Assembly (NCBI GenBank): GCA_035550135.1
Contig: DASZQB010000107.1
Coordinates: 12,064-76,063, forward strand
Length of the DNA stretch: 64,000 nt
Source of the DNA: Verrucomicrobiales bacterium
Lineage (GTDB): Bacteria; Verrucomicrobiota; Verrucomicrobiia; Verrucomicrobiales; V1-33
Direction: 5' to 3'
Shown here: piece by piece, positions 11,741-60,260 of the stretch
Position numbering within the stretch: position 1 is the stretch's first letter
How the letters are laid out: each line of letters begins with the position of its first letter
Program-made: the position numbers and the translations under genes
Notes under the pieces: generated by a model
Databases searched by the model: none
What the model saw: only the letters and a program-made list of their open reading frames with translations
Told to the model about the DNA's origin: nothing

Positions 11741-11832
11741 CCGCCTCACGACTCATGACGGCTGGACCGGACGCGAACATCCCCGGTCCTGCCGTCCCTC
11801 CTCTCTATCTCAATTCAACAAATCTCCACCCC

Positions 11833-40659: not shown

Positions 40660-40755
40660 ACCACCCTCCGTCCCGCGTATCCCACGGAAATGGGAGTGGA
40701 CTTTTCCTGCCCTTGGAGGCAGGAAAGAACTCCCCATTTCAAGCCCCGCCACCTT

Positions 40756-43700
40756 ATGCCTGACTCAGTTTTTCCTGGTTACTCTCTGCTCTCCAAAAGA
40801 TGGCTGCGGCCCGGAGCGGTGTGCGCCGCTCTCGCCGCGATTCCTTCACCGCTCCTGGCACAGCGGGACTTGAAGGAAATCCCCTCGACCGATCCCGCCG
40901 TCGAGCTAGCCTCCTTCAAACTCGCGCCCGGCCTGGAGGCCAATCTGTTTGCCCAGGAGCCGCTGATTCACAAACCCATCCAGATGGCGTGGGACGAGCG
41001 CGGCAGATTGTGGGTGGCCAGCAGCGCCATTTATCCTCACATCAAGCCGGGTCAGGAGCAGAAGGACCAGATCGTCATCCTGGAGGACACGAACGGCGAC
41101 GGCAAAGCCGACAAAAGCACCGTGTTTTATGAGGGCCTCCTCATTCCCACCGGCATCCTGCCCGGCGACGGCGGAGCCTACATCGCCAACAGCACAGAAC
41201 TCCTCTTCATGAAGGAAGGCCCGGATGGCAGGGCTGGAGAGACCAAGGTCCTGCTCAGCGGATTCGGCACCGAGGACACGCACCACATCCTGCACGGCTT
41301 TAAGCGCGGGCCGGATGGATGCCTCTATCTCATGCAGAGCGTGTACATTCACGCGCACCTCGAAACGCCGTTCGGCGTGCGCCGCCTCATGGGCAGCGGC
41401 ATCTGGCAGTACCGTCCGGAGACGGGACGGGCGGAAATTTTCACCATGGGGCAAATCAATCCCTGGGGACACATCTTTGACAAATGGGGGCAAAGCTTCA
41501 CCACTGACGGAGCCTACGGCGAAGGGATCAACTACGCTTTCCCCGGTGCAACTTACCGCTGTCTGCCAGACCAGCGCCCGCGCATTTTGAAAGGCCTCAA
41601 TCCCGGCCAGCCGAAGCATTGCGGTCTGGAAGTCATCAGCGGGAGACATTTTCCGGACGACTGGCAGGGCGATCTCATCACTAACGACTTCCGCGGTCAT
41701 CGTGTGAACCGTTTTAAAGTAAGCGATCAGGGCAGCGGTTTCGCGTCGCGTCAGGTGGAAGACGTGATTCGCAGCAACCACGGCTCCTTCCGCCCCGTGG
41801 ATGTGAAAATGGGGCCGGACGGCGCGCTCTACATCGCCGACTGGTACAACCCTATCATTCAACACGGCGAGGTGGACTTCCGCGACGAACGCCGCGACCA
41901 CGCCAATGGTCGCATCTGGCGCGTGAGCGTAAAGGGTCGGGAGAAGTCTCCAAAGGTCGATTTTGCAAAAGCTTCCACGGAGGAGCTTATCAAATTGACC
42001 AGCGTTCCGGAGGCATGGGTGCGCCTCGAAGCCAGCCAGGAAATCAAACGGCGGGTAAAAAACGGTTCGGCGGAAGACTTGTGGCAGGCAGTCTCCAAAG
42101 CGGCAATGCGCCCGCCCGGTGGTGATCCATTCCTTGATCTATGCGCCGCTCAGGCGGTTTACGACGTCATGTCAAACCGGCCTAACGAGCTGGAACCCGG
42201 CCACAGCGAAGCTCACGCCGCTCTGCTCTCCTATACGGGCCTGCTAACCAATAAGGACGCGAGAGTCCGTGCATGGGCTGTGCGGATGATCACCCAGGGT
42301 TCATCCAAAGGGGTGAAGGCAAAGGAAATGGGCCTTGCCATGATGATCAACCAGCCGGGCACTTCGCTCGTTGAAGACTCTTCGGCCCGGGTGCGCCTTG
42401 AGATGGTCAACGGGTTGCGGCAGTTTGGAACAGCGCGCTGTGTCGAACTCGCCTGCAAGGTCCTCGATCACCCGATGGATGAAAATCTGGACTTCGCCCT
42501 GTGGCTGACGTGCAGCGAACTCGCCGATACATGGCTCCCTGCCTTCCAGAAAGGCGAGATCACTTTTGGAGGCAACATTGCGCACATCGCCTTCGCGCTC
42601 AAAGCCGCCGATAAACCGGAAGCCGCCGGCGCTTTGCTCACCATGGTTAACGAGGGCAAAGTCAGCGGCGACCGCGTGAAGGACGTCATCGGCCTCGTCG
42701 GCACCCTCGGCGGCAAAGCCGACCTGGTCAAGTTGCTCGCTCTCGCCGCCAAACCGGAGATGCAGTCCGCCGTTTTCGATGCTCTCACCACTGCCGCTCA
42801 GCAGCGCAATCTGAAGCCGGACGGAGGCGCCGAACAAATTGTTGGCATTCTCAAGCAGGACACCGGCGACTCCAGAATCGCCGCCGCAAAACTTGCCGGT
42901 GCATGGAAGCTCGAGGACGCCCGCGGAGCTCTTCAGCACCTCGCAGAATCGCCCGCAAATCTCGACCTTGGCGCTGCCGCGCTCCAGGCCCTCAGTGCTC
43001 TCGGCGGGTCGAGCGGCGGATTCTTCCGCCATCTGTTGCACGAACGTCTCACCTATGTGAGCCGGCACACCGGAGAAATCCTCGCAGCGTGGGCACGCTT
43101 GAATCCCCAGGAGGCTTCGGCGGACGCCGCCGAGTTCCTTGCCGGCGGCAAATGGAAGGAAGGGTCTGAATCCGGCATGGTCCCGGCCGCCGGACGGGTG
43201 TTGGATGCTTACCTCGCTCTGAAGAATGGCCCCTCCATTCTTGCTGCTGCCCTCAAAGACAAAAAGATCCCCGCCGCTGTCGCCAGTGCCGGAATGCAAA
43301 AAGCCAGCGTCGTGGGCGGAAATACAAAACCTCTCATCGAAGCTCTCACCGTCGCCGGCGGCCTCCAACCCGTCGTCGCCCTCACGCCTGCCGAACTCAC
43401 TCAAATGATGGCCGATGTGAAATCCCAGGGCGACCCCGCCCGCGGAGAACTCATCTTCCGGCGCCAGGCGCTGCTTTGCCAAAACTGTCATGCCATCAGC
43501 GCCGTCGGTGGCATTGTCGGGCCGGACATGGTTAGCATTGGAGCCAGCGCCCCGGTCGATTACATCATTGAGAGCCTCCTCGAACCTTCGAAGAAAATCA
43601 AAGAGGGTTACGCTACCACATTGGTTAGCACCAAAGACGGACTCAGCTATACCGGCACTCTCCTGCGCGAGGACGCCCGCGAAGTCCTCCTGCGCAATCC

Positions 43701-44313
43701 CTCCGGATTGGTCGATTCGATTCCGGCTTCCAAAGTCGCGAAGAAGGAAAACATCCCCATCTCGCTCATGCCCATCGGCCTCACCGCCATGCTCCGCCGC
43801 GATGAACTGGTGGACCTCGTCCGCTTTCTTTCCGAACTCGGCAAAGAAGGGGCCTACAAGGTTCAGGAGGACGGCACTCTTCGCCGCTGGCGCACCGCGC
43901 AGCCTGTTCCTGACATGTGGCGATGGATGAATCTCAAAGGCAATCGCGGCTTTGCCGAAGCCCGCGACGAACTGACATGGCTCCCGCTCTACAGCCACGT
44001 CAACGGCACCATCCCCGGCGAAGAAGCCCCCCTCATCAAAGTCGGCAATAACGAATGGCGCGCCATCGAATCCGAAATCGAAGTCTCCGCCGCCGGCAAA
44101 GTCGGCCTCCGCCTCAACGATCCCGCGAATCTTCAAATCTTCATCGCCGGGAAAGAAGTCCCCGCCGCGTCCGAAATTCAAACCAGCGTCCCCGCCGGCA
44201 AAGTCCGCATCACCGTCCTCTTCGACACCACGGTCCGCAAAGCTCCCATCAAAGTCCAGGTCTTCGACCTCCCCAACTCTCCCGCCCGCACCAAAGCCGT
44301 CTCCGGAATTTAA
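40756..44313 (+). CDS. PVC-type putative membrane-bound dehydrogenase domain, HEAT repeats and CxxCH haem-binding domain protein
   Basis: N-terminal propeller-like domain (WDERGRLWVASS, PDGALYIADWYNPIIQHGE), a central helical-repeat region, a haem site (LLCQNCHAISAVGG) and a C-terminal beta-domain. I chose the ATG at 40756. The long minus ORFs opposite it are shadow frames. Confidence 0.85.
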   Translation: MPDSVFPGYSLLSKRWLRPGAVCAALAAIPSPLLAQRDLKEIPSTDPAVELASFKLAPGLEANLFAQEPLIHKPIQMAWDERGRLWVASSAIYPHIKPGQEQKDQIVILEDTNGDGKADKSTVFYEGLLIPTGILPGDGGAYIANSTELLFMKEGPDGRAGETKVLLSGFGTEDTHHILHGFKRGPDGCLYLMQSVYIHAHLETPFGVRRLMGSGIWQYRPETGRAEIFTMGQINPWGHIFDKWGQSFTTDGAYGEGINYAFPGATYRCLPDQRPRILKGLNPGQPKHCGLEVISGRHFPDDWQGDLITNDFRGHRVNRFKVSDQGSGFASRQVEDVIRSNHGSFRPVDVKMGPDGALYIADWYNPIIQHGEVDFRDERRDHANGRIWRVSVKGREKSPKVDFAKASTEELIKLTSVPEAWVRLEASQEIKRRVKNGSAEDLWQAVSKAAMRPPGGDPFLDLCAAQAVYDVMSNRPNELEPGHSEAHAALLSYTGLLTNKDARVRAWAVRMITQGSSKGVKAKEMGLAMMINQPGTSLVEDSSARVRLEMVNGLRQFGTARCVELACKVLDHPMDENLDFALWLTCSELADTWLPAFQKGEITFGGNIAHIAFALKAADKPEAAGALLTMVNEGKVSGDRVKDVIGLVGTLGGKADLVKLLALAAKPEMQSAVFDALTTAAQQRNLKPDGGAEQIVGILKQDTGDSRIAAAKLAGAWKLEDARGALQHLAESPANLDLGAAALQALSALGGSSGGFFRHLLHERLTYVSRHTGEILAAWARLNPQEASADAAEFLAGGKWKEGSESGMVPAAGRVLDAYLALKNGPSILAAALKDKKIPAAVASAGMQKASVVGGNTKPLIEALTVAGGLQPVVALTPAELTQMMADVKSQGDPARGELIFRRQALLCQNCHAISAVGGIVGPDMVSIGASAPVDYIIESLLEPSKKIKEGYATTLVSTKDGLSYTGTLLREDAREVLLRNPSGLVDSIPASKVAKKENIPISLMPIGLTAMLRRDELVDLVRFLSELGKEGAYKVQEDGTLRRWRTAQPVPDMWRWMNLKGNRGFAEARDELTWLPLYSHVNGTIPGEEAPLIKVGNNEWRAIESEIEVSAAGKVGLRLNDPANLQIFIAGKEVPAASEIQTSVPAGKVRITVLFDTTVRKAPIKVQVFDLPNSPARTKAVSGI

Positions 44314-45037: not shown

Positions 45038-45247
45038 ATCAGACTCTACCGGCTCCGGCGGATCTGGCAACCTCCGCCCTCCATTGTTGTGGCGCGGTTT
45101 GTGCAAATCGGCGGATGAACTATGCCGCTCTCCCCCGCCTCCTCTTCACGCCCGGGCGCGATTCGACGTCCGGAGCAGAGCCGCGCATTTCCTTTGACGC
45201 ACGCCCCCGGGTCCGTCTCGTGCTCCCCGGGTTCAACCCCGGCCATT

Positions 45248-46663
45248 ATGTCCGACGTCAAAACATCGAAGGCAAACATCCGCGTGGAGCGCGATTCATT
45301 CGGAGAAATCGAGTGTCCCGCCGACAAATACTGGGGAGCGCAAACGCAGCGTTCGTTGGAAAATTTTAAGATCGGAGGCGAACGTATGCCGCTTCCCCTC
45401 ATTCGAGCCCTCGCGCTCGTGAAGAAAGCAGCAGCGCTAACAAACATCCAGCTCGGCTCCCTCGACACCCGCATCGGGAACGCCATCATCCAAGCGGCGG
45501 GTGAAGTGCTCACCGGTTCCATCGGCTGCGAACATTTCCCCCTCGTCGTATGGCAGACCGGCTCCGGCACGCAGACGAACATGAACATGAACGAGGTGCT
45601 TTCCAATCGCGCCATCGAAATCCTCGGCGGCGCGATGGGAAGCAAAACCCCGGTGCACCCTAACGATCACGTCAATTGCGGTCAGTCCTCCAACGACACC
45701 TTTCCCGCCGCGATGCACGTCGCCGCCGTGCTCGGGATCGAACGCCATCTGCTGCCCGCGCTGCACCGGTTGCACGAGGCGCTGAAAACAAAGGAGCATG
45801 AATTTGCGGACATCGTCAAAATTGGCCGCACCCATCTGCAGGACGCCACGCCTCTCACGCTCGGACAGGAGTTCTCCGGCTATCGCACGCAGATTGGTTA
45901 TGGCATCGAGCGCGTGCGCGCGTGTTTTCCCGCCCTCCTGCGTCTGGCTCAAGGCGGCACCGCCGTCGGAACGGGCATCAATACGAAAAAGGAATTCCCG
46001 GAAAAGTTCGCGACGAATTTGGCGGAAATGACAGACCTCCCGTTTGTCACCGCGGACAACAAATTCGAGGCCCTCGCCGCGCATGATTCCATCGTTGAAT
46101 GTTCCGGCGCACTCAATGTGCTGGCGGTGAGTCTCATGAAGATCGCTAACGATATCCGGCTCCTCGGCTCCGGTCCGCGCTGTGGTTTTGGAGAACTCAG
46201 TCTTCCGGAAAACGAACCAGGCTCATCCATCATGCCTGGAAAGGTCAATCCCACCCAGGCGGAGGCGCTCACCATGGTTTGCGCTCAGGTCTTCGGGAAT
46301 CACACCGCTATCACTTTCGCCGGCGCCAGCGGGCATCTCGAACTGAATGTGTTCAAGCCGGTGATGATCTATAACCTCCTGCAATCCATCGATCTTCTTG
46401 CCGGCGCCGCACACAGTTTTGCTGAGCACTGTGTGGACGGCATCACCGCAAACGCCGATCACATCGCAAAACTCCGGAACGAAAGCCTCATGCTCGTCAC
46501 CGCACTGAATCCGCACATCGGCTACGACAACGCTGCCCGCATCGCAAAGAAGGCGCATCACGAAGGCACTTCATTGAAGCAGGCCGGAATCGAACTCGGC
46601 CTCCTCACTTCCGATCAGTTCGACCAGTGGGTGCGCCCGGAAAAAATGATTTTCCCCGACTAA
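45248..46663 (+). CDS. fumC: class II fumarate hydratase
   Basis: [13 protein letters not shown] and the [13 protein letters not shown] signature. The ATG at 45248 ([21 protein letters not shown]) gives a typical ~471-aa length. Confidence 0.95.
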
Positions 46664-46928: not shown

Positions 46929-47331
46929 TTCACGTCCGTCGCCGCACGCGCTCAAAAGCGTAAATCCGGCGAGCGACGAGGACGGAGGACAGTTCCGGAA
47001 TGGCGGAGAAATATTCCCGTTCACCCGGTTGGAACGGCGCATTCGTCCTCCCTATGGTCGGAGTAGTGATAAAGCGGAAGTTCGAAGGACGGACACGCCC
47101 CGCCCCTTCGTGCGCCTGCGAGCGGAGAGGGAGTAATTTCGCCGAATGCCGCCATTCCGGGGAGAAAACGGCGAAATCAACGAAACAACAGTATCTCGTT
47201 CCAACGGCGTTGATGACTGCAGCGCCGTCGCGGGAAAAACCCGGGCGAATTCCCAGGAGGGTGTCTTCCCGCCTTCGCGGGAGAAAGAACCCCTGCCCTT
47301 CGCCGCTTATCGTTTAATGTTCCTGCAGCAT

Positions 47332-48558
47332 ATGTTGACAACGACCAGAAAGAAAACCGCACTCATTGCATCCGGCTGGGCCGCGTGCACCGCTTTGGCC
47401 TTTTGGGCCGGGACCCATTGGCGTGGAGAAAACTCCGATGCGACAGAAAGGGCGAAACGGGCGGCACTTTTGCAGAGTGGATTAAACACAGGTGAAGCGA
47501 AGGGAAGCGGGCGCATCGGACAGACGCCGGACGGATCCCCGGCCAAAGACGCGGCGGTCATCGGAGCAAAGGCCATCCGCGAGCTGACGCCGGAGCAAAC
47601 CGCCGCGCGGACGAAAGAGATTTTCGCGATGGAGGACATGCAGCAGCGCACCGAGGCGTTTCTGGAAATGTTGAAAGGTCTCCACGGCAATGAGCAAATC
47701 TCAGCCGCCATGGAGGCGATGACCGAAAACGGCTACAACAACCGCGAGCGCGGCCGGGAGTTTTCCATGCTCATGACGCGGTGGGCCAAAGAGGACCCGG
47801 AAACCGCCCTCGCATGGACCCAGAAACACGGAGACTGGCGCAATCGCTGGGGCGCTCAGACGGCACTGGCCGTGTGGAGCCAGAATGACCCTGACAAGGC
47901 TGTCGCGTGGGCCCTGGCGCACCCTAATAAAGACAAGGAGGAGGGGAACCATAACATGGTCGGGGTCATCAACGGCCTAACGAAAACGAATCTCGATCTC
48001 GCGGCGCAACTGGCACAGAACATGGACCGCAGCAATGCCCGCGGAGAGGCCATGGAGCGCGTGCTCGAACAGTTTTTCAAACAACGGGGCCCGGACGCCG
48101 CCAAGGAGATGGTGATGGGTTTACCCGATGGTCCTTACAAAAACGGCGCCCTCGGACGCCTTGCGGACCGGCTGGCCGATTCCGATGCCAAGTCCGCAGC
48201 AGTCTGGGCCGCCGCTCTTCCCGACGGCGAAGCGAAACCTGGTGTCGTCGCACAGGTGGTTGATGAGTGGGCGGGAAAGAATCCCAACGACGCCGGCAAC
48301 TGGCTCAATGCCCTTCCGCAGACGGCAGCCATGGATGAATCCCGGGAACGCTTCGCTTTCAGAGTCCAGGAGAAGGATCCCGAGGCCGCCATCGCGTGGG
48401 CCGGCACCATCACCGACGAAAACCGCCGGAACAAGACCTCCTTCCGGCTGGTCCGGGAATGGATGAGCCGCGAACCGGACAGTGCCAAAGCCTGGGTGCG
48501 GAACAGCCAGTTGCCCGCGGATATGAAGGAGCGGCTCATCAACCGCCGCAGAGGGTGA
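47332..48558 (+). CDS. N-terminally anchored helical-repeat protein, paralog 3 of the 'W..DP..A..W' family
   Basis: The ATG at 47332 (MLTTTRKKTALIASGWAACTALAFWAG; alternative 47317) is preferred over the track start at 47146. Repeats include WAKEDPETALAWTQKH, WSQNDPDKAVAWALAHP and WAGKNPNDAGNWLNALP. Confidence 0.7.
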   Translation: MLTTTRKKTALIASGWAACTALAFWAGTHWRGENSDATERAKRAALLQSGLNTGEAKGSGRIGQTPDGSPAKDAAVIGAKAIRELTPEQTAARTKEIFAMEDMQQRTEAFLEMLKGLHGNEQISAAMEAMTENGYNNRERGREFSMLMTRWAKEDPETALAWTQKHGDWRNRWGAQTALAVWSQNDPDKAVAWALAHPNKDKEEGNHNMVGVINGLTKTNLDLAAQLAQNMDRSNARGEAMERVLEQFFKQRGPDAAKEMVMGLPDGPYKNGALGRLADRLADSDAKSAAVWAAALPDGEAKPGVVAQVVDEWAGKNPNDAGNWLNALPQTAAMDESRERFAFRVQEKDPEAAIAWAGTITDENRRNKTSFRLVREWMSREPDSAKAWVRNSQLPADMKERLINRRRG

Positions 48559-48567
48559 TTTCCCGGT

Positions 48568-49308
48568 TCACGGCTTCCCCGGGCCCGTCAGATTCCAGCT
48601 TTCTTTCCAGTCGTCACCCGTCGGCTGGATTCGGTGATACCAGGATTCCGGCGGCCATTTACTTTCATTCAGGGGTTTGGCAGCAAACAACTGAACATCG
48701 TCGACCGGGACGGCTGCAAAATTCGTCCACTTGTTGTCGAAGATCGTTTGCAGCAGCCGCCTGCTGCAAAGAGTGGTCCCGCGTGATCCGATGGGCTCAT
48801 TCTCCCGGTACGGCAGCAAGTCCGACCCGTCCCAACTGGCCTTAAGCGGGATTCTCTGAACGAACCGGGCATGGCCGGGGGCCTGCCTTGCTTCATGTTC
48901 CAGCACTTCTGAAATGAACTCCATTTTTCCCGCTTCATTTTCCCCCGTGAAGTAGCGCAGAAGGAAGGTGAGCGGCCTGCCGCGCGGCACCATCACATAG
49001 TAATTGCCGGGAAGTGCGGGTACGAGACCCGTGCGCGTGAATTTCACCTCCCGGAAATCCACCCCTTTAAAGGGGTGGCGGCCGATCTCCTCTGCTGCCG
49101 GCTCTGAAACGACCAGCGGCGCGGAACTACTGAAGGCATTCAGGCAATCCCCCCAGGTGCGGCCTTTCGATACCTCCGCGCGCGCCGGACGGGTGGACTC
49201 CATGATAGTTTCGGTCGCCGGTTGAAGATCTGTGATCATAACGGCACCGCGTGCCCCGTGCCGGTGAAGATTAAATATCGGTATTTCCTTCAAACTGGAT
49301 TCAGACAT
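48568..49308 (-). CDS. hypothetical protein; candidate immunity partner of the upstream toxin-like C-terminus
   Basis: The ATG at 49308 (MSESSLKEIPIFNLH...) lies 17 nt after the stop of the 2572-aa gene, on the same strand. The track start at 49344 is a TTG overlapping that gene. No family recognised. The immunity call rests on position only. Confidence 0.55.
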   Translation of the reverse strand: MSESSLKEIPIFNLHRHGARGAVMITDLQPATETIMESTRPARAEVSKGRTWGDCLNAFSSSAPLVVSEPAAEEIGRHPFKGVDFREVKFTRTGLVPALPGNYYVMVPRGRPLTFLLRYFTGENEAGKMEFISEVLEHEARQAPGHARFVQRIPLKASWDGSDLLPYRENEPIGSRGTTLCSRRLLQTIFDNKWTNFAAVPVDDVQLFAAKPLNESKWPPESWYHRIQPTGDDWKESWNLTGPGKP

Positions 49309-49325
49309 GTCAGCGGGGTAACGGC

Positions 49326-52300
49326 TTACGGAGTGAATTCCCAATCGATGGATTTGGCCTCGAAATTCATAGTTTTACCAACCAATTTTTCTTTGAAAGC
49401 CTCGATTTCCGGAAGTGTGGCATTCGGGTTCAGCGCCCTCCATCGTTCCCACTGATAATTGAACGCGTTTCCAGTCTCGCCGAACCCTGTCAGGCCTTTT
49501 CCATTCACGATGTAGTGGAAGTCTGCGGGGAGCCAGCGGCCCGAGTTGGTGCCTTCATGGACATCGATGCCTCTTTTGGCAAAGTACTCCTCCATGTCCT
49601 GGGGATAGTCATGATGCGCCACCGCCGGGCGGGTCTCAGCCCAGTGCGGCTTGTCACCCAGCCTTCTGCCCAGCAGAGCACTGCCTTTCGTCGTACCTGA
49701 CTGTGTTATTCCCATCTTCCAAAGATCCTCCAGGTTCTGTCTTGTGATCCTGCCGTCCGCGATCATCGGGCGCAGTTCGACGAAGAGCGCACTCCGGTAA
49801 TCATGTTTGCGGGTGGCTACGTCGAGGGCGGCTATCATGGCTTCCTTGATCTCCGCTCTGCCGCCGCCCGGGAGCTTCAGAACCAGTTTTTTAATGCGCC
49901 CGGCCTTGAATTGTTTGTGGAGCGTGCGGGCCATGGACCCGCCTTTTACCGTCAGAAGCGTAACAAAGAGGCTTACGGCACCCGCCTTGGCATCACCTTC
50001 GGAGATGGCTTTGGCACCGTCATAGGACATGACCATGACGCCGACGCTCATGTAGTAGATGGACAGTGACTCCGCAAAGGAGCGCCCGAACGCGGAGAAG
50101 GATCCTGAGACGGCGTCTTTCAATCCCTGCTGCCAGAGACGTATAAACTCCTCCTTGCTCGTCGTTCCGTCCGCCATGCGGTTGCCCAGATCCTCCCAGA
50201 AGGAAGGCTCGATGCGGAGAGTCGACCTTACCTTCGCGGGGCTTTTTGCCATCTCCTGCAGTTCCACCAGTGCTTCGGCCAGCCCCTGCACCGCCTTCTC
50301 AAGAGTGGGCAACTCCTTGCGGCTGAGCCACAGAGTAGGGGTCTTATCAGGACGCAGTATCGCATCGTAGCCTGAGATGTAATCCCAGTACCAGTCCCAG
50401 GGATCGCCCCACCAGGCCGTCTCGTTAATCTTGATGGCCAGACCCTGATTTTCGTACCACTCGAGCACCTCCGCTGCGCCTGGACCGTTCAGGAGCCCAA
50501 ACATCATTCTCACGTCCTCGAAGGTGTAGGGGCCGCCGGGGTTGACATACGGATCGTCGGCAGGAGGCGGCTCCTCGGTCGGGGTACTGACGCCGGTCGT
50601 GTGTCGCGACTCCTCCAACATTTGGACGGCGGAAGCTGCCTGCAGCTGTTCCAACTGCAATTTGGTCACCGCCGGATTGAGACAATAATTTGCGGAAAGT
50701 TTGGAATTCGCCGCAAAAATGGACAGTTCGCCCGTTGGCGCAGTGACATAGAGTTGATCGAAGAGAGGATCCACCGGCGGAAGGTCGCCGGTGGGAGAAG
50801 TCTTCAGGATCACCGGCACGCCGTTCATCTTCGGTGTCATGCCGTTCAGGGGGGTAAAAGTCGGGGCGGCGAGCTTGGGCACGGTCAATCTCAGCGCAAA
50901 CGGCGTGGCTTGCGGAGGATCCTCTATGTCCGTTCCCGGGTCAGTGATGACAGTATCGATAACCCTCAGGGCTTCCGATGCCGGCAGCATGGCACCGGAA
51001 TCGACGCAGTTGAAGAGGCGCGTGCTGCCTCCGGTTTCCTGCCAGGTCCCCAGGACCGCCGTGGTCGAGGTGGGCGATCTGATTTCCAGACGGGCTGAAA
51101 GATAACGCGCTGTCGCGGAGGGTGGATCAAGGGTGCGGAGATTGAGACCGTAGGTGGTATTCTGGGCCGTGGTGTACTCAAAATACAGGCCGTCATAGTG
51201 GCCCACGGGTTCCTGCAGCGTGGCGGTGATGCCGCCGCTCAGGGTCACGGAATTCCGCACGCCGTTGGACGGCTCTCCTCCCACGAAGAAAATGCTCACC
51301 GGACTGGGGGGCGGCACGTTCACGGGCTCGTAGCTCACACGGTCCAGCACCACAGTGGCGTCCGCCCGCCCCCGCTTTTCCGCCGCGTTTTTCCGGGTAA
51401 CAAATCCCAGCGACACCGGCTGGGGATCCGTGACCTGAATGGTAAAGGATCCCTGGAACTGACATTCGGAGCGGGATTTTTCCCATGGTGCCTTCAACGC
51501 GCCCCCCTGATTGATGAGCGTCCCGGTCGCCGTCGTCTTGAGGACGCCGTTCACGTAGATGTCCAGCAGGTTGGCCACGGAGGCACTGCCGGTCATCTCC
51601 GCATGAATGTCGCGCGCCTTCGCCGTGTAGCTCACGGTCACCAGCTTCGTGGGCGAGATGGTCGAGGACACGGTGGTGAGCGTCACCGTGGGACTCAGCG
51701 GGGAGTGGGGGATGGACCCCCCCAGATTGGAAAAGACTCCTGTGATCGGGTCTCGGGATATTGCATCAACCCTCACCGGCATCAGAAGCATAGGATTGGT
51801 GTGATCCGCCCACGCCAAAATCACGCCGTTCTGATTGATGTCGGTACAATTGGACAACATCGATGGTCCGGGAACCGTGAGAGATTTACGGATCTTACTA
51901 AACGAGTTGTTTTGATGAACGTCGAAGTCGTCATGGTCATCGGACCAAAAGATGCCCATCCCCTGATTGTTCACCTTGGTCCAGGCCCATGTGAGAAAGC
52001 CCCAGTCCACCCCGCCCTTTCTAGTCGCTTTTTCCCAGGCGGGAGTTTGCAAGGCGTCATTCCATGCATACACGGTAAAGCCCTCCTGTGCGAGCGGGCC
52101 TGACCCATGGATCGCGGGCTTCATGGAATTGATCCATGATCCCGACTCGGGGCCGGAGGCCTTGTCGTGCCATCCGCCGCCGGCGTCGCGGTTCCAAATT
52201 TTCATCACGTCGCCGTCTTCGTCTCTGGTGCGTGACAGAAGCCAGTATTCATCGCTTCGGACCAGTGATACGGGAGCATTCCCCGGTTCCGCCCAGAATC

Positions 52301-55300
52301 CTCCGGTTCCCCAATCGAGTGCGTCAGTGCTGTCTAAAAACACGTCGCCGTTTGCACCGGGGCGCAGCAGCAAAGCCCGCCTGAACTTCGGCGGGAGCTG
52401 TCCTCCTTGTGGCAGGACCACGTCTTTAAAGGTCAGCGATCCAGTTTCCGGGACGAACAGGTAGGCTCCGTCATTCTCCAGATTTTGGTCCCAGTAGTAC
52501 AAATCCAGCAATGCCCGGCCTTCGTCGTCAAAGTCCAGAACCGTACCGGAGTAATGGCCCGTTCCTTCGGCCGTCAGGACTTGCTTCGTTGAGGCAATCC
52601 ATACTTTAAATTTCACGTCATCGGCTCCAGGAGGGTCCGGTACTGAAAACAGCACATCTCCGCGGTTGTTGAGAGCCAGCGGCTTTCCTTCCACGCGGTC
52701 ACCTGAGGCCGTTGTCAGGAACATCGGGACGTAACGGACCGTCGGCGTACGAAAGAATTTGAGTTCCTTGCTGTTCGGAACTGCATCATTGCTGTCCATC
52801 ACGCCATCCCCGTCGAAATCCCTGAGGTGCCCCAGGCCCGCGGCTTCAGAATCACAGCGGCCGTGCCAGCCATACCAGCGGGTTGTCCATTCCGAAGGAT
52901 CCAGGCCCAGACGGATTTCCTCCAAATCGGTGACACCGTCCTCGTCGGTATCGGTCTTCGGCTGCGCGGCATCCGGTTTGCCGGGATCTCCCGCGGCGTT
53001 GAACAGATCCTTCAGTTTATAACCGCTCCCCTCCATTCGACTGTCCGGAGTGACCGTCGCGAAGGAGGTAAACGCGTCATTGGGGCTGAGGTTGATGACG
53101 TAAAGTTCGAACCAGTCTGGCAATCCATCGGGTTGGGGGTCTGAGTCCACCCATTCGTCGCAGCCGGCCTCGATACTGGATCCCGGACGCGGTTCGAGGT
53201 CAAAATCATAACTGCGGGTGCGTTTGGCGCCTGCGGGCCGCTCCACCGCCAGTCCGGTATGAGCGGGATTCGCGCCCCCTAAAAGATGTACCACTTCCGG
53301 CGGCAGGGGCGCGGCAATGTGGATGCCGTCGAAGGCCAGGGTCGGACGGATGCTCACGCCGCCGGGAAGAGTTTGCTGAGAATTATTGCCGGCGGCAGCG
53401 AGGGTTCCCTCCGGGCTGAAAACCTGGGTCAGAGCGGGAGTGTTGAACCATGTGATATTGTTGAAGAATTGGGCATCCCCCGAAGCATAGATTGCGCCCC
53501 CTTCACCGGCGCCTGAGTGATTTCCGGTGAGAGTGCAGTGGACGATAATGCCGTCAGGATAGGAATCGCCCTCCGAACCGCCCACAAAGACTCCGCCACC
53601 GACAGCTCCGGCGGTATTTCCACGAATGGCACAGTTCGCCAGACGCGGGACGCTGGGAACGCCGGCGGGCGTGTTGGGAGGTGAAGTTCCATTGACAGTG
53701 AAAAATCCCGGGCCGACACCCCGGACATAGATCGCGCCGCCTCTCTCCGCAGCCTCATTATCATGGAAGTCACTGCTGAAAACGGAGGGACCGCCGACCG
53801 CTGTGACGAAGAGAGCGCCTCCCTGGGACGACCCATCGAGCGACTCCGCGATATTGCCGGTGAAGCGGCAACCATGAAGATCCGTATTGCAGCCGTTGAG
53901 CACCACTCCACCGCCCTCACTATGGATCGACAATACGGGATGGGCGACATTTTCAGCGAATACGCAGTTGGCGAGGACATTGTCAAAAACACTGACGGGA
54001 ACGGTCGCGTTAGTGTAAAACTCGCCGCTGAAGGTGGAATATCCCGTCAAACTGTTAAGGGACGCACCGCCGCCTGAGCCGGCGGTATTGCGAAAGAAAA
54101 CGCAGCCATTGAGATTCAGGCCCGCCCCAGGGCCGACGCAGTAAACCCCGCCCCCAACGGCGGCGGCATTATAGGCGAAGGTGCAACCGGCAGCGGAAAA
54201 CCGGGCGGTGGAACCGCTGTGGACCGCACCTCCAAGGCTGGTAGCTTCGCAGCCTTGGAACACGCAGTTCGTAAGTTGAAAGCGGCGTCCGGCGGATCCC
54301 GGCGACGATTGATAGGAAATGGCACCCCCGTTTACAGCCTTGCAGCCGGTAAACGTGCAGTCGTAAACCATCAGCCCCTGAGTGTAGCCTTGCCAAAAAA
54401 ACACACCGCCGCTGCCTCCGGCGGGGGCAAGCCCGTGACGGAATTCGATTCCCCGGATGGTCCACTCCGGAGAACCGTAATAGGAGGAACTTGTTAGGAA
54501 CCGCCTCCGCACACCTTTTGCGTCCTCCAGTTCGATCACCACGCTCCCTGGGCCATTGAGGCTCTTGAGCGTAAAGGCAATAGTGCCGGAAACCATGAGG
54601 GACGGCGTTGACAGGTCCCGGTTTAAGTTGCCGGAATAGGTTCCGTCGCGCAGGCAAATGCGATTACGGGTATTCGGAACCAGGAGCTGCAGAGCCCGGC
54701 TTATCGTGCGAACGGGGGAACTTATGTAACCATAGTTGGCGTCGTTGGCGGAGATCCCTGCCGCATCTACAAAAATGCAAACACTGGATTCATAGCCGGG
54801 GTAGCGGGGATCGGAACCGTTGGCGTATTCTTCAATATTGGTAAAGCCGTCCTGATCGGCATCCTTGTCGCCATCCGCTTTGTCGTTCGGATTTAACTGG
54901 TACTTGATCTCCCATGACGAAGGCATGCCATCGCCATCGGTATCGGCAAAGGCAAAGGCTCCCCGCTGGGCGAGTTGAGGCACCGGGAGACGGGGGACAC
55001 CTTCGATATCCGTCGCGGGACGCGGAGGATTCTGATTCGGATTCGGATTGGCTGCAGAGGGCACCGTGGCGTAACGGAGGATCGGGGTTCCGGAAAGGAA
55101 ATTCGGGTTGTTCGCGTCGTTGCCACTACCCGGAAGGATGACAGGCGGAGCCGTGGCGGATTCGACGGTGCAGTAAGCGGCGCTCCACAGCGCCGTTCCG
55201 TTCACCTGACTTTTTACCCCCCCGCTTATCCGGTTGTCCCACAAAATGCAGGAGTTGAGGGTAATCGTTCCGCCGGCATTGCCGTTAAAAAGCCCCCCCG

Positions 55301-57044
55301 ATTCTGTCCTGGCTGTATTACTCAGGATCGTGCAATAGCTGAGAGAACCGGTAACGCCCCCGGCGAACCCAACGGCTCCCCGGCCGGTTGTGTTGATAAA
55401 GTTAGAGCCGATGTAGCAATTCTCAATTTCGCAGGAGCCCCCTTGAAAAAAAAGTGCAGGTCCGTCGCCATTGGTCGTATAATTGGACGTGAATCGGCAA
55501 CGCCGGATCTTCACTGCCGATTGTTGCGCATAGCACGCGCCGCCATGGTATCCTGACTGGCAGGTGCTGAAGGTGCAGTCCTCAGCCGTTAGGGGCGCGC
55601 CGTTGACGAACACGCCACCTCCGAGACTGGAGGCAAAGCAGGCGGAAATCGTGCACCGCCGGATGGTAACGGGAACGCCATCCGAAAAAATCGCGGCGCC
55701 CCTTTGACCGAAACCCTCACGAAATGACGTGATGGTTAGTCCCTCCACGACGAAAGGGCCTGCGGACGGAGCGGTCGTGTAAAAACAGGAGTGTGTCGGA
55801 TCTCCAACGATCGTGGCGCCTTGCGTTCCAACAATCGTTACGGGTTTGAGCACCTGAATACTCTGGTTGCCGGTGCCGATGAAAACATTGCCGCCGCCCT
55901 GCAAAACCACCCGTCCGCCAGCCGGCACGGCAGCGATGGCGCTCGTAATGTTCGCAAACGGCTGGTCGAAGGTGCCGAGGAAGGGCGCTACCGCATTCGC
56001 TCTCGCATAAACCACCGTACTCGAAGCAGTACCTGCGTTAAGAGACGGGTCGTTCGGGTTGGTCTGTGCTGTAAATTCCTCGGAATTCGTGTAGCCGTCG
56101 AGATCAAGGTCCACGTCTTTGTCCGACGCCGAGGCTGGATTGAGAGCGTAATAGTATTCCCAGCCATCGAGCATGCCGTCGTCGTCGGAGTCGTCGTCGT
56201 TCGCTTTCGTTCCCAGCAGGTATTCTGTGATGTTCGTCACCCCGTCGTAGTCTTTGTCGCTCTCCCGGTCGTCAGCGCTGGCATTGAGGTAATTATCGTA
56301 CTCCCAGGAATCCGGCATCGCATCCTTGTCGGCATCCGCGTAGAGCGGGTGAGTGTCGCCCGTTTGGAAATCGTCGATGAACGTGTATTTACCAGTGGCT
56401 GCCCGGACCACAAAACTGCCGGAGGCGGGCGAATTCGGAGGGTGATTGATCACCTCAAGCTTTCCATTGATCCATAAGTCTGAGATCGTCGCTGCAGGAT
56501 CCGTCCGGAGGGTAAGGCGCAGCCAATTTTTGAGATATGATCCGTTCTCAATGAAAAGCGCGGGACCGGTAGCCGTCCATGTGCCCCCGCCCGCCGGCGA
56601 ATACATATACAGCCGGGCTGTCGTGGCGGAGCCAACCTGCACGATCATCGCCGGAACCGAATCAATGACGAGCTGCGCTTCAGCTACTGTCCATGACGGA
56701 ACGGTATTCACAGGAATCGTCTTGCCCACAGGCAAACGCAGGGAGACGTCTAGGAAACGCACTCCGCTTCCCGCCGCTGCCGCATGCGAAAGCGTGCCGG
56801 CGGCGCTGCTCGAGGTGAACTTGAGCGACTGGTCCCCCGAGACACTTAACGCCCTTGAAACTTCCAGCGCCCCCCCGCTGAAACTCCATCCTCCGGGAGG
56901 ATTCTTTTGAGAAACCGTTCCGACCTGCCAATTATTTGGAGCATTGGGGCGGGTTTCGAATTCATCTGCTTGATTGGCGGCACGGCTGGAACGGAAGCCG
57001 CAGAAGAAACAAAGGAGAGCAGCAACGCTGGGGACTATTTTCAT
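49326..57044 (-). CDS. 2572-aa secreted giant protein: LamG-like region, TSP3-like repeats, two Pmp-like beta-helix blocks, a long uncharacterised trunk and a C-terminal AHH-type nuclease-like tip
   Basis: Signal peptide MKIVPSVAALLCFFCGFRSSRA. Asp-rich TSP3-like motifs (DKDYDGVTNITEYLLGT, DLDLDGYTNSEEF, DQDGFTNIEEYANGSDP, DTDEDGVTDLEEIRLGLDP). Many GGA[ILV]/GGGV plus FxxN pairs (GGAIYASGDAQFFNN, GGAIYVRG, FHDN, FAYN, FFRN). C-terminal ...AVAHHDYPQDMEEYFAKRGIDVHEGTNSGRWLPADFHYIVNG... Confidence 0.85.
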   Translation of the reverse strand: MKIVPSVAALLCFFCGFRSSRAANQADEFETRPNAPNNWQVGTVSQKNPPGGWSFSGGALEVSRALSVSGDQSLKFTSSSAAGTLSHAAAAGSGVRFLDVSLRLPVGKTIPVNTVPSWTVAEAQLVIDSVPAMIVQVGSATTARLYMYSPAGGGTWTATGPALFIENGSYLKNWLRLTLRTDPAATISDLWINGKLEVINHPPNSPASGSFVVRAATGKYTFIDDFQTGDTHPLYADADKDAMPDSWEYDNYLNASADDRESDKDYDGVTNITEYLLGTKANDDDSDDDGMLDGWEYYYALNPASASDKDVDLDLDGYTNSEEFTAQTNPNDPSLNAGTASSTVVYARANAVAPFLGTFDQPFANITSAIAAVPAGGRVVLQGGGNVFIGTGNQSIQVLKPVTIVGTQGATIVGDPTHSCFYTTAPSAGPFVVEGLTITSFREGFGQRGAAIFSDGVPVTIRRCTISACFASSLGGGVFVNGAPLTAEDCTFSTCQSGYHGGACYAQQSAVKIRRCRFTSNYTTNGDGPALFFQGGSCEIENCYIGSNFINTTGRGAVGFAGGVTGSLSYCTILSNTARTESGGLFNGNAGGTITLNSCILWDNRISGGVKSQVNGTALWSAAYCTVESATAPPVILPGSGNDANNPNFLSGTPILRYATVPSAANPNPNQNPPRPATDIEGVPRLPVPQLAQRGAFAFADTDGDGMPSSWEIKYQLNPNDKADGDKDADQDGFTNIEEYANGSDPRYPGYESSVCIFVDAAGISANDANYGYISSPVRTISRALQLLVPNTRNRICLRDGTYSGNLNRDLSTPSLMVSGTIAFTLKSLNGPGSVVIELEDAKGVRRRFLTSSSYYGSPEWTIRGIEFRHGLAPAGGSGGVFFWQGYTQGLMVYDCTFTGCKAVNGGAISYQSSPGSAGRRFQLTNCVFQGCEATSLGGAVHSGSTARFSAAGCTFAYNAAAVGGGVYCVGPGAGLNLNGCVFFRNTAGSGGGASLNSLTGYSTFSGEFYTNATVPVSVFDNVLANCVFAENVAHPVLSIHSEGGGVVLNGCNTDLHGCRFTGNIAESLDGSSQGGALFVTAVGGPSVFSSDFHDNEAAERGGAIYVRGVGPGFFTVNGTSPPNTPAGVPSVPRLANCAIRGNTAGAVGGGVFVGGSEGDSYPDGIIVHCTLTGNHSGAGEGGAIYASGDAQFFNNITWFNTPALTQVFSPEGTLAAAGNNSQQTLPGGVSIRPTLAFDGIHIAAPLPPEVVHLLGGANPAHTGLAVERPAGAKRTRSYDFDLEPRPGSSIEAGCDEWVDSDPQPDGLPDWFELYVINLSPNDAFTSFATVTPDSRMEGSGYKLKDLFNAAGDPGKPDAAQPKTDTDEDGVTDLEEIRLGLDPSEWTTRWYGWHGRCDSEAAGLGHLRDFDGDGVMDSNDAVPNSKELKFFRTPTVRYVPMFLTTASGDRVEGKPLALNNRGDVLFSVPDPPGADDVKFKVWIASTKQVLTAEGTGHYSGTVLDFDDEGRALLDLYYWDQNLENDGAYLFVPETGSLTFKDVVLPQGGQLPPKFRRALLLRPGANGDVFLDSTDALDWGTGGFWAEPGNAPVSLVRSDEYWLLSRTRDEDGDVMKIWNRDAGGGWHDKASGPESGSWINSMKPAIHGSGPLAQEGFTVYAWNDALQTPAWEKATRKGGVDWGFLTWAWTKVNNQGMGIFWSDDHDDFDVHQNNSFSKIRKSLTVPGPSMLSNCTDINQNGVILAWADHTNPMLLMPVRVDAISRDPITGVFSNLGGSIPHSPLSPTVTLTTVSSTISPTKLVTVSYTAKARDIHAEMTGSASVANLLDIYVNGVLKTTATGTLINQGGALKAPWEKSRSECQFQGSFTIQVTDPQPVSLGFVTRKNAAEKRGRADATVVLDRVSYEPVNVPPPSPVSIFFVGGEPSNGVRNSVTLSGGITATLQEPVGHYDGLYFEYTTAQNTTYGLNLRTLDPPSATARYLSARLEIRSPTSTTAVLGTWQETGGSTRLFNCVDSGAMLPASEALRVIDTVITDPGTDIEDPPQATPFALRLTVPKLAAPTFTPLNGMTPKMNGVPVILKTSPTGDLPPVDPLFDQLYVTAPTGELSIFAANSKLSANYCLNPAVTKLQLEQLQAASAVQMLEESRHTTGVSTPTEEPPPADDPYVNPGGPYTFEDVRMMFGLLNGPGAAEVLEWYENQGLAIKINETAWWGDPWDWYWDYISGYDAILRPDKTPTLWLSRKELPTLEKAVQGLAEALVELQEMAKSPAKVRSTLRIEPSFWEDLGNRMADGTTSKEEFIRLWQQGLKDAVSGSFSAFGRSFAESLSIYYMSVGVMVMSYDGAKAISEGDAKAGAVSLFVTLLTVKGGSMARTLHKQFKAGRIKKLVLKLPGGGRAEIKEAMIAALDVATRKHDYRSALFVELRPMIADGRITRQNLEDLWKMGITQSGTTKGSALLGRRLGDKPHWAETRPAVAHHDYPQDMEEYFAKRGIDVHEGTNSGRWLPADFHYIVNGKGLTGFGETGNAFNYQWERWRALNPNATLPEIEAFKEKLVGKTMNFEAKSIDWEFTP

Positions 57045-58766: not shown

Positions 58767-60260
58767 ATGAGCAAGAATCTGAAAGGCCTGAAAGGCAAAA
58801 GTTATAACGAAGTGATGAACGAATGGGCTGCCCAGCAGTCCTTTCTGCGGCGGGCAAGTTCAGGGCTCCTGCGGCCTGGTTATGATGTCACGGGCTACGC
58901 GCGGCTGTGGGGATGGCTTTGGCGGATGCTGATTCTCACGGGCGTTCCGCTGCTGCTTTATATGGGCGTGCTGCGGGTGTACGGCAAGGGTCCGGCTTTC
59001 AACACTCAAATGACCGCCGAAGTGAAGCGGTTTCTAGGAGCGGAAAATGTGGTTCTCGGGGCGACGCGCTGGGACCTGAACGGGGAACTGAGGATTGCGT
59101 CCATGAAAGTGCAGGGCAAGTCGGCCAACATTTTCCAGGATTTGAAGGCGGAGAATCTCAGCACGTGGATCACGGTGCCTAACGTTTTCAAATCCGACTG
59201 GCACCTGAAATCCGTCGATTCGGTAAAAGCCTCTATTTCCCTCCGCCCCGGCGGCTCTCCGAAGGTGGCTTCCGGTTCGCCGGAAAGCGGTTCGAAACTG
59301 CTCACCGCCGGCTGGGGTATCAAACCGGATTTTTCCCTGCTGACGGTGGACCAATACAAGTCCGACAGTCTCACCCTGACGTGGGGCGGCAATCCGGCGA
59401 CCACGGGTGAACTCACGGGCAGCAATGCGACGCTCACACACAACGGGGCGGATTGGGACCTCCTGCTCGCCGGCGGCACTTTCCGTCAGGGATGGTTTGA
59501 CCAGATCCGCGTGCTGAACGCGAAAGTGAAGATCACCCCTGAGCGCGCGGTGTTTGAAAAAGGGGAGTTCGCCATTGCCGGCGGCGGCAACGGAACGCTG
59601 ACAGGAAACATTGCGCTGGGTGAGTTTCCGGAGGTGGACCTCACCATCAATGTCGAGAACACGCCGTTCCATCCATTCCTGCCGGAGTTCTTCCAGAACT
59701 ACGTCAAGGCACTCAGCAAAGGAACCATCAAGCTGAGCGGTTCCACCAACCGCAGCACCGGCATTCTGATGGACTGCAATTTTGATCTCCTGTCAGGCAA
59801 AATTATCGGTGTTCCGGTGTTTCGCGCGCTGGAACTGGCCACGGAGGAAACGCACGTGGCGCAGCCGGAAATCAAAGGCGGACACGTTCGATTCACCAGT
59901 CAGGGCACGCAGGAAAACGGCGGATTCCTGCTCGAAGCCAGTGACGTGGTGCTGGACTGCGGAGCGAATCTCAAGATCGGCCTGACGATCCGGCACGAAC
60001 GCAAGGAGGTGCAGGCCAGCAATGCCCGTGAGGCGGCGGCTGCCACCGGCGACAGCGTGTCCCTAACGACTGTCGGCACTATCCGCATCGGCCTGCCGCC
60101 GGAAACCTTCACCAAGCTGAAACCCGCCATCCGTCAGGAGTTCTTCACCCGGGAGGACCAGGGCCTGCACTGGATGGAGGCTCCCTATCGCATGGAGGAT
60201 GGGGAGTTCACCAAAGATACTGCGGACCGGATCATCGCGCTGCACAACGGCGGCAAGTAG
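58767..60260 (+). CDS. membrane-anchored hypothetical protein
   Basis: One TM segment (LWGWLWRMLILTGVPLLLYMGVL), then ~420 aa of beta-rich sequence. Clean ORF. Confidence 0.7.
   Translation: MSKNLKGLKGKSYNEVMNEWAAQQSFLRRASSGLLRPGYDVTGYARLWGWLWRMLILTGVPLLLYMGVLRVYGKGPAFNTQMTAEVKRFLGAENVVLGATRWDLNGELRIASMKVQGKSANIFQDLKAENLSTWITVPNVFKSDWHLKSVDSVKASISLRPGGSPKVASGSPESGSKLLTAGWGIKPDFSLLTVDQYKSDSLTLTWGGNPATTGELTGSNATLTHNGADWDLLLAGGTFRQGWFDQIRVLNAKVKITPERAVFEKGEFAIAGGGNGTLTGNIALGEFPEVDLTINVENTPFHPFLPEFFQNYVKALSKGTIKLSGSTNRSTGILMDCNFDLLSGKIIGVPVFRALELATEETHVAQPEIKGGHVRFTSQGTQENGGFLLEASDVVLDCGANLKIGLTIRHERKEVQASNAREAAAATGDSVSLTTVGTIRIGLPPETFTKLKPAIRQEFFTREDQGLHWMEAPYRMEDGEFTKDTADRIIALHNGGK

Follow-up and report, generated by a model that had tools for sequence, protein, structure and literature searches.

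The window analysed here, a 64-kb stretch (64,000 nucleotides, nt) of the genome of a Verrucomicrobiales bacterium, carries on its reverse strand a giant gene for a protein of 2572 amino acids (aa), followed directly by a gene for a protein of 246 aa. The giant protein begins with a signal peptide and ends in a predicted nuclease domain, referred to here as the tip, and the two genes are read as a nuclease toxin with its immunity protein, with a probability of about 0.7. A preliminary description of this DNA had placed a 2572-aa open reading frame (ORF) with the codons for A-H-H at 49611-49619, a 246-aa ORF 17 nt downstream and a convergent gene at this locus, and all of these are present. The 17 nt separate the TAA of the giant gene from the start of the 246-aa ORF, and no promoter-like site was found between the two genes. 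The protein encoded by ORF 49326-57044 on the reverse strand ends in RPAVAHHDYPQDMEEYFAKRGIDVHEGTNSGRWLPADFHYIVNGKG. The features of the locus are as follows.

47146-48558, forward strand: convergent ORF of 470 aa, with its stop 9 nt from the stop of the 246-aa gene.
48568-49308, reverse strand: candidate immunity gene, 246 aa, with ATG at 49308 and stop at 48568.
49326-57044, reverse strand: giant gene, 2572 aa plus stop, from the ORF list and its translation.
49329-49652, reverse strand: toxin tip, residues ~2465-2572, a predicted DNase domain of the DUF2380/SitA6 type, AHH-like.
49503-49517, reverse strand: H2510-x3-N2514 on the helix after strand 2, predicted metal ligands.
49611-49619, reverse strand: codons of A2476-H2477-H2478 (GCG CAT CAT), predicted catalytic and metal-binding His residues at the end of strand 1.
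49725-51797, reverse strand: conserved pre-tip module, residues 1750-2440, of no Pfam family.
49743-49775, reverse strand: LRPMIADGRIT motif, residues 2424-2434, the best conserved motif of the pre-tip region.
49947-50069, reverse strand: moderately hydrophobic stretch resembling a helical hairpin, residues 2326-2366, second in the protein by Kyte-Doolittle rank.
51798-56978, reverse strand: variable N-terminal part, residues 23-1749, with TSP3 calcium-binding and beta-helix/PMP-like repeats according to Pfam.
56979-57044, reverse strand: signal peptide MKIVPSVAALLCFFCGFRSSRA, followed by ANQ, the most hydrophobic segment of the 2572-aa protein.

The tip is related at the profile level to a family of known toxins. 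PF09533 (DUF2380) is the sole Pfam family matched by the last 150 aa of the giant protein; the match has E-values of 1e-5 to 1.7e-5 (24.8-25.5 bits) and covers model positions 100-174 of 187. The NCBIfam model TIGR02269, 'SitA6 family polymorphic toxin lipoprotein', is matched with an E-value of 2e-4 (20.8 bits). The cutoffs of the two models are 26.3 and 85.75 bits, respectively. An exhaustive HMMER search seeded with the tip among 1.84 billion representatives gave 42 proteins, and in every full-length protein among them the match lies at the extreme C-terminus. DUF2380 is matched by 30 of the 33 tips that were aligned (best E-value 6e-31), the consensus of the tip relatives scores 41.3 bits against it, and all ten distant relatives tested pass its cutoff. 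The tip of the window would be a divergent, borderline member of DUF2380, at the margin of the family. In protein P0039 and in a megaplasmid protein of Ralstonia solanacearum (DUF2380 E-value 1.7e-13) the tip is preceded by Rhs repeats, and in P0028 and P0038 by PT-HINT ends. Since it terminates both Rhs and PT-HINT proteins, the DUF2380 tip is a genuine polymorphic-toxin tip elsewhere. PADLOC returned nothing for the tip of the window.

Across the 33 tips, H2478, F2488, H2510 and W2532 are invariant, while H2477, P2481, G2492 and D2494 are nearly so. Position 2514 is a His in most relatives and an Asn in the window and its two closest relatives, so that of the HH...H-x3-H core the window tip keeps H2477/H2478 and H2510 and has Asn2514 at the fourth position. 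Because the histidines H2477, H2478 and H2510 are invariant or nearly so across 33 tips and the profile E-values reach 1e-5 for the window sequence alone, the AHH motif of the tip is, as far as sequence can tell, more than a product of chance. Membership in the Pfam AHH family is another matter. None of the Pfam AHH, LHH, GH-E, SHH, GHH and HNH models matches the window tip at E ≤ 10, and the match of the last 150 aa to the AHH model that the preliminary description had suggested as a check did not appear. Three of the 33 relatives do match PF14412 weakly (best E-value 0.005), one of them in register over the HH...H region (E-value 0.038). The window tip would not qualify as a demonstrable member of Pfam AHH. 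Of the AHH-type nuclease tip originally proposed, a toxin-type domain of the DUF2380/SitA6 kind with an AHH signature is retained, and the matches to the Pfam AHH model and to a solved structure are not. In one relative, locus L006, the tip (55-58 % identical) has an in-frame TGA at 575-577 where the window has Trp2534 (NYQWKR* compared with NYQWERW). This TGA is situated two residues past the invariant Trp2532, and the homology goes on in frame beyond it; it could be a pseudogene mutation, a sequencing error or a case of recoding.

The AlphaFold2 (AF2) model of the tip, built on the 33-tip alignment, has a predicted local distance difference test (pLDDT) score of 95.8. In the numbering of the model, a strand (22-26) ends in the HH pair and is followed by a short inserted helix, a second strand (50-54, GRWLP) and a helix (55-61) that bears H58. 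This order of elements is the one expected for a beta-beta-alpha-metal finger. HNH endonucleases occur among the sub-threshold BFVD matches of the model, as a hint only. From the model and the motif we infer a His-Me finger fold for the tip, which is well motivated but is not itself a result.

The 246-aa partner protein lacks a signal peptide and has no match in Pfam, NCBIfam, PADLOC or PDB. Its homologues lie beside the tip in six further, independent loci (L003, L005, L006, L007, L008 and L010), and a seventh, 76 % identical, is found in L002 at a contig edge, on a contig that holds no tip. The partner of L003 is 77 % identical to that of the window. That of L006 is 43 % identical and fused to DUF7003. 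In L007 two tandem copies, ~31 % identical to the window protein, are 79 % identical to each other, and the partner of L005 is 19 % identical (E-value 6e-12). Distant homologues adjoin the tip gene in L008 and form the second gene downstream of the tip in L010. A hidden Markov model (HMM) of the clear members finds the L008 protein with an E-value of 9e-6 and, after one iteration, that of L010 with 1.4e-5; among 907 ORFs this family HMM picks up no false positive. Divergence is faster in the partner than in the tip, with identities of 77, 43, 31 and 19 % compared with 77, 55, 41 and 37 % for the tip.

The sole Pfam match of the partner-family consensus is Imm11, over 28 residues, with an E-value of 2.9e-4 and 20.7 bits against a cutoff of 22.1. 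No Pfam or NCBIfam match, to Imm11, PF09535, TIGR02264 or any other family, was found for the 246-aa protein of the window or for five relatives. The most distant members each contain two CXXCG motifs, CGICG and CDECG in L008_d1 and CSGCG and CPECG in the ORF of L010. These signals, each of which is weak, point to an immunity protein of the Imm11/double-CXXCG clan that may have lost its cysteines. The 246-aa gene had been put forward as a linked immunity candidate, and this proposal is borne out by its conservation as a neighbour, its faster divergence than the tip, its tandem duplication and the faint Imm11 signal. It probably behaves like a cognate immunity gene, immunity itself being deduced from these patterns.

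The tandem copies in L007 (10421-11137 and 11261-11983) directly follow the gene of a 2211-aa tip-bearing protein, an arrangement that resembles immunity-gene duplication. In L006 (728-2362) the DUF7003 domain fused to the partner domain is C-terminal (Pfam E-value 1e-59); because of this fusion, DUF7003 may be another immunity-type domain. The partner homologue of L008 (10315-11559) has 414 aa, with the two CXXCG motifs and an extra C-terminal half, and is followed at 11640-12044 by a gene of SUKH-1 (SMI1/KNR4), a classical nuclease-immunity family.

The giant protein that carries the tip is read as a Sec-exported, adhesin-like surface protein. Its signal peptide is type I-like and lacks a canonical lipobox, the cleavage site and the absence of a lipobox having been read by eye. 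In the whole protein, Pfam and NCBIfam recognise only DUF1565, bacterial TSP3, Chlamydia-PMP repeats and a partial Amuc_1099 match. When residues 23-1749 are compared with the N-terminal parts of other tip-bearing proteins, homology is slight or absent. The pre-tip module, on the other hand, is shared: in phmmer searches residues 1750-2572 are colinear with tip-bearing proteins of 600-2200 aa, and tblastn matches the module in loci L004, L007, L008, L009 and L012. No match to the module was found in plasmids, and the window contains no paralogue of it. No RHS, LXG, PT-HINT, haemagglutinin, filamentous haemagglutinin (FHA), two-partner secretion (TPS), PAAR or MuF domain is matched in the giant protein by Pfam or NCBIfam, in agreement with the earlier observation that markers of RHS, LXG, PT-HINT, haemagglutinin or secretion systems are missing.

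In the AF2 model of the last 410 aa (residues 2163-2572; 49329-50558), two confident parts, 2174-2292 and 2382-2572, are joined by a low-confidence segment that holds the hydrophobic stretch. In its pre-tip portion the model shows an alpha/beta domain of high confidence, a hydrophobic hairpin of low confidence and a small domain that packs ahead of the tip. A Foldseek search of this C-terminal model gave no significant PDB match for either confident part. The hydrophobic stretch (residues 2326-2366) has a Kyte-Doolittle value of 1.37 over 19 aa, below typical transmembrane strength, and its pLDDT is below 50. The preliminary description had noticed it at ~250-300 aa upstream of the tip; the stretch is there, at a distance of ~110-150 aa ahead of the AHH and 206-246 aa ahead of the C-terminus. 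Similar Gly/Ala-rich hydrophobic stretches are present in relatives too, and the stretch may be a candidate membrane-interacting or translocation element. The pre-tip alignment of relatives has L2424 as an invariant residue of the LRPxIxxGxIT motif, which follows the stretch, and P2426 and G2431 as nearly invariant ones. Speculatively, the pre-tip module could provide entry into target cells.

The tip and its neighbour had been described as an exchangeable module in AT-richer DNA, beginning at about position 50700 and grafted onto a conserved trunk. The GC content of 48568-50700 is 0.576, compared with 0.587 for the trunk (50701-57044) and 0.601 for the whole window; windows of the size of 48568-50700 across the 64 kb have a mean of 0.601 and a standard deviation of 0.019. 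Only the last ~300 nt of the giant gene and the gene junction dip, to 0.527 (under the 5th percentile of 0.543) and 0.51, respectively, so the AT-richness judged by eye is not upheld. As a candidate feature, an AT-rich cassette was dropped after GC and GC content at third codon positions (GC3) had been computed, since neither differs from the trunk.

The relatives, found in searches seeded with the tip that would have missed alternative tips on the same module, give the reverse of the gradient anticipated: the C-terminal module is conserved and the N-terminus is variable. Residues ~1750-2572, about 820 aa including the tip, are colinear with tip-bearing relatives whose N-terminal parts are unrelated. 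Compared with L004, the closest long relative, the N-terminal part has identities of 0.22-0.40, and the region just ahead of the tip reaches 0.75-0.84. Compared with L003, the values are 0.87-0.90 ahead of the tip, 0.83-0.86 within it and 77 % for the partner, and in distant relatives the tip (31-41 %) exceeds the pre-tip module (24-28 %). The drop in identity and GC expected at a fixed junction was not found: the closest relatives show no fall in identity at the tip, and there is no break in composition. Searches of other kinds added little, k-mer protein searches with the tip, the partner and the pre-tip region giving one or two near relatives each and pattern scans of genomes and metagenomes one locus each. 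Relatives L002 and L005 are named Verrucomicrobiales/Verrucomicrobia. In L008 (5129-6004) and L009 (4117-4986) the tip-bearing gene is immediately preceded by a gene for a secreted-looking protein of ~290 aa. These two proteins are homologues (E-value 6e-12); as a conserved upstream partner gene they were set aside, since the window has no counterpart.

Some relatives hint at mobility. In L004 (P0005, 1415 aa; 5880-6003) homology ends right after LRPMIADGRIT, 37 aa before the AHH, and unrelated, AT-rich DNA follows, in which a stop comes after 9 codons and the contig ends 82 nt further on; an allele without the tip, an insertion or a chimeric assembly could explain this. L014 (1-1633, a Logan contig of SRR20820735) has a stand-alone DUF2380 tip ORF of 108 aa (1268-1594), which begins 4 aa before the AHH and is closely preceded by a stop codon. 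About 700 nt separate this ORF from the 3' end of an upstream tyrosine recombinase gene on the same strand that is integron-integrase-like, its best PDB match being VchIntI4, the Vibrio integron integrase IntI4 (2a3v, E-value 7e-42), and the ORF may be a mobile orphan toxin cassette. P0004 consists of a 126-aa tip, followed by a 250-aa gene, with no giant carrier.

These hints, the exact loss of homology in L004, the tips that stand free of a carrier, the dip to 0.527 in the tip core and the swappable DUF2380 tips of Rhs and PT-HINT proteins, would fit a cassette of the last ~700 aa and the 246-aa gene recently grafted onto a conserved trunk, as in the tip swapping of CdiA and Rhs. Such a graft is nevertheless decidedly improbable here. 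The segment and the trunk do not differ in GC content, no fall in identity to the closest relative occurs at the tip, and the tip is better conserved than the region before it and far better than the N-terminal part. The tip-seeded searches found no alternative tip on the module, the window contains no orphan cassette array, and the convergent downstream gene stays in place in L001 and L002. The evidence from sequence comparison argues against a recently swapped cassette, and the idea of an exchangeable module is not supported for this locus.

Several observations weigh against the reading of the locus as a nuclease toxin with its immunity protein. The score of the window tip is just under the DUF2380 gathering cutoff (24.8-25.5 compared with 26.3 bits), and PF14412 is not matched by it. 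Its last metal-ligand His is replaced by Asn (N2514), and the Asn between HH and H that belongs to the Tox-AHH signature is not a conserved column in the tip family. With the tip model Foldseek found nothing significant (best E-value 3.4 in PDB and 0.37 in BFVD). In hhalign the tip family and the DNase of ColE7 are not significantly related (probability 0.4 %), though HH was aligned to HH, and searches of PDB by sequence, with the single tip sequence and the family profile, gave chance matches only. As for the partner, loci L009 and L012 have other partners or none, the Imm11 likeness is short, sub-threshold and confined to the consensus sequence, and no CXXCG motif is present in the window protein. 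Neither a domain nor a system known from secretion or trafficking was found for the giant protein.

Taken alone, the Asn at the last position of H-x3-H, the sub-threshold Pfam score and the missing structural match might be expected of an inactive tip, a His-rich domain that has degenerated or been put to another use such as metal or ligand binding, with the downstream protein as an accessory factor or chaperone. The in-frame TGA in L006 and the absence of the tip from L004, which suggest that the tip is dispensable, point the same way. This explanation is most improbable, however, as 33 diverse tips, those of Rhs and HINT toxins among them, show little or no variation at the HH pair and H2510. 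Asn is accepted as a metal ligand in other His-Me-finger nucleases; the two closest relatives share it in domains that are otherwise intact, and the partner gene is kept in six further loci.

The nature of the export signal and the lack of tip polymorphism bear on a more serious alternative, in which the giant protein would be a surface-anchored or secreted DNase for nutrient scavenging or for remodelling of extracellular DNA or biofilm, and the 246-aa protein an intracellular inhibitor that acts before export, like NuiA for NucA or barstar for barnase. This alternative is plausible because conservation, not polymorphism, marks both the nuclease and the long module that precedes it; the Sec signal peptide is the only export signal, with no element of a type V, VI or VII secretion system (T5SS, T6SS, T7SS), Rhs or HINT, and the inhibitor has no signal peptide. 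Sec export, however, passes unfolded protein, which leaves less need of a stoichiometric inhibitor unless the toxin re-enters cells. Wherever the domain family has been characterised or annotated, its context is that of a toxin (SitA6, pMF1.20, Rhs, PT-HINT; PMC8546572, PMC6091211), and the partner has the marks of immunity (tandem duplication, domain fusion, a SUKH neighbour and faster divergence). Because of these toxin contexts and this immunity-like partner, a scavenging DNase is considered unlikely.

The toxin-immunity reading starts from what is observed directly, namely the architecture, a profile-level family assignment, a gene pair conserved among relatives and a set of conserved histidines. 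In the mechanism proposed, the Sec signal peptide would export the 2572-aa protein, which may be displayed or released as a large adhesin-like molecule. Its last ~110 residues would form a metal-dependent DNase of the DUF2380/SitA6 type, AHH-like, in which H2477/H2478 at the end of the first strand and H2510/N2514 on the next helix are predicted to cut DNA with the help of a metal ion. The nuclease domain would be released or imported into a neighbouring bacterium and degrade DNA there, entry being the presumed step. In the producer, the cytoplasmic 246-aa protein would bind and block the tip and thereby protect the cell and its kin, as suggested by the conserved linkage and the faint Imm11/double-CXXCG resemblance. 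The conserved C-terminal module of ~820 aa, which would comprise an Ig-like region, the alpha/beta domain, the hydrophobic hairpin, LRPxIxxGxIT and the nuclease, appears to be joined to variable N-terminal adhesin parts in Verrucomicrobia-type bacteria, and on a speculative view it may itself provide delivery or translocation.

The delivery route of the toxin would appear to involve no recognised Rhs, HINT, T5SS, T6SS or T7SS element. A bolder proposal is that the ~820-aa module is a self-contained device for toxin delivery and translocation, confined to Verrucomicrobia-type bacteria and paired with a new Imm11-like immunity family. It would mediate contact-dependent inhibition without T5SS, T6SS, T7SS, Rhs or outer-membrane exchange, the N-terminal adhesin setting the target. 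In this far-reaching form the proposal is doubtful.

Interbacterial toxins are well mapped in Proteobacteria, Firmicutes and myxobacteria; for Verrucomicrobia, there is hardly any work on them. Should the assignment be right, the range of the SitA6/DUF2380 nuclease family would come to include giant Sec-exported surface proteins of Verrucomicrobia, and proteins of ~250 aa that at present belong to no family would gain a name and a role in immunity, probably as remote relatives of Imm11/double-CXXCG. The conserved, unannotated pre-toxin module of ~700 aa would then be a candidate for a new mechanism of delivery or import. Even so, the toxin chemistry itself would not be new.

The surroundings of the gene pair are largely without annotation, and no secretion-system genes were recognised near the giant gene. 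The convergent 470-aa gene (47146-48558, forward strand) has no Pfam or NCBIfam family and gives nothing in PADLOC; inspection by eye shows a single hydrophobic segment around residue 70 of its product, along with helical 'A.AW' motifs that recur. The gene stays beside the partner gene in the relatives L001 and L002. Large ORFs of no Pfam family lie at 58767-60260 (forward, 497 aa) and 60274-63876 (reverse, 1200 aa). Elsewhere in the window, ORF 40690-44313 encodes a DUF7133/HEAT protein and ORF 45122-46663 a class II fumarase.

Among known systems, the SitA6/SitI6 pair of Myxococcus xanthus (PF09533 and TIGR02269 for the toxin, PF09535 for the immunity protein) provides the best and sole meaningful profile match of the window tip. 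SitA6 toxins have been described as AHH nucleases; they are lipoproteins of small size that contain an escort domain and are transferred by TraAB outer-membrane exchange (PMC8546572), while the SitI6 immunity proteins belong to the double-CXXCG family of the Imm11 clan (PMC12077181). Both pairs share the toxin region (model positions ~100-187) and an immunity gene of ~250 aa directly downstream. Features like those of SitI6 are the two CXXCG motifs of the distant partner members and the weak match of the partner-family consensus to Imm11. Unlike SitI6, the partner in the window lacks CXXCG and does not match PF09535 or TIGR02264. Unlike SitA6, the window tip ends a 2572-aa protein with a Sec signal, no lipobox (by eye) and no escort-domain match, in a Verrucomicrobia-type organism. 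Since there is no lipobox, no escort domain and no myxobacterial outer-membrane exchange, the giant protein is not a SitA lipoprotein.

The pMF1.20/pMF1.19 pair of the Myxococcus fulvus plasmid pMF1 also has a DUF2380 domain and a co-transcribed neighbour, of ~30 kDa. In vitro, pMF1.20 cuts DNA, and in E. coli it is toxic; its co-transcribed neighbour pMF1.19 counteracts both activities (PMC6091211). In the literature searched, it is the sole DUF2380 member for which DNase activity, toxicity and neutralisation by a neighbour have all been demonstrated (PMC6091211). It differs in being a single-domain lipoprotein that has been read as a plasmid post-segregational killing factor and has no giant carrier, and its sequence similarity to the window tip is at the profile level only.

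In the Rhs and PT-HINT toxins with DUF2380 tips, such as that of the Ralstonia solanacearum CFBP2957 megaplasmid (L013, 2862-5303), the tip is at the extreme C-terminus and a small gene lies directly downstream, as in the window. Their carriers, however, have an Rhs cage or a HINT autoprotease, with the tip right after a DPxG or HN junction, and the window protein has neither. The downstream gene of Ralstonia (97 aa, DUF1963-like) is of a different family from the window partner; it was compared as a possible member of the partner family and found to be unrelated.

Three further systems share the general plan. Tox-AHH (PF14412) with Imm11 (PF07791) has [AG]HH followed by a His on a helix, as do the AHH and H2510 of the window. 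Its signature is given as [AG]HH, N, H, H, Y on an HNH/EndoVII fold (Zhang et al. 2012, PMC3482391), and Imm11 is a listed partner of Tox-AHH, with Verrucomicrobia among the phyla listed (Zhang et al. 2012, PMC3482391). The differences are that PF14412 fails to match the window tip, that the conserved Asn of Tox-AHH is not a conserved position in the tip family and that the second His is Asn here. The DNase of colicin E7, with Im7, likewise has an HH pair that ends strand 1, an H-x3-H on the next helix (H-x3-N here) and a linked immunity gene. It differs in that no significant profile or fold match exists and in that the window tip has a helix of ~8 residues inserted between the strands; the receptor and translocation domains of colicin E7 are unrelated to the window protein. 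CdiA-CT/CdiI has in common with the window pair a very large exported beta-helical or filamentous protein, a C-terminal nuclease and an immunity gene immediately downstream, and the pre-toxin motif VENN of CdiA-CT has its counterpart in LRPxIxxGxIT. The TPS domain, FHA repeats and CdiB partner of CdiA are missing here, and the tip is not variable among the relatives seen.

Measured against the description of polymorphic toxins by Zhang et al. (2012), the locus has the C-terminal toxin domain on a large exported protein and the gene directly downstream; it does not have tip diversity at a sharp junction (in tip-seeded searches) or a recognised trafficking or processing element. The system would work like SitA6/SitI6, pMF1.20/pMF1.19 and the Rhs-DUF2380 toxins. 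What is new is the carrier, in which a conserved module of ~820 aa is set on variable giant adhesins of Verrucomicrobia-type bacteria, together with the unannotated partner family and, presumably, the delivery route.

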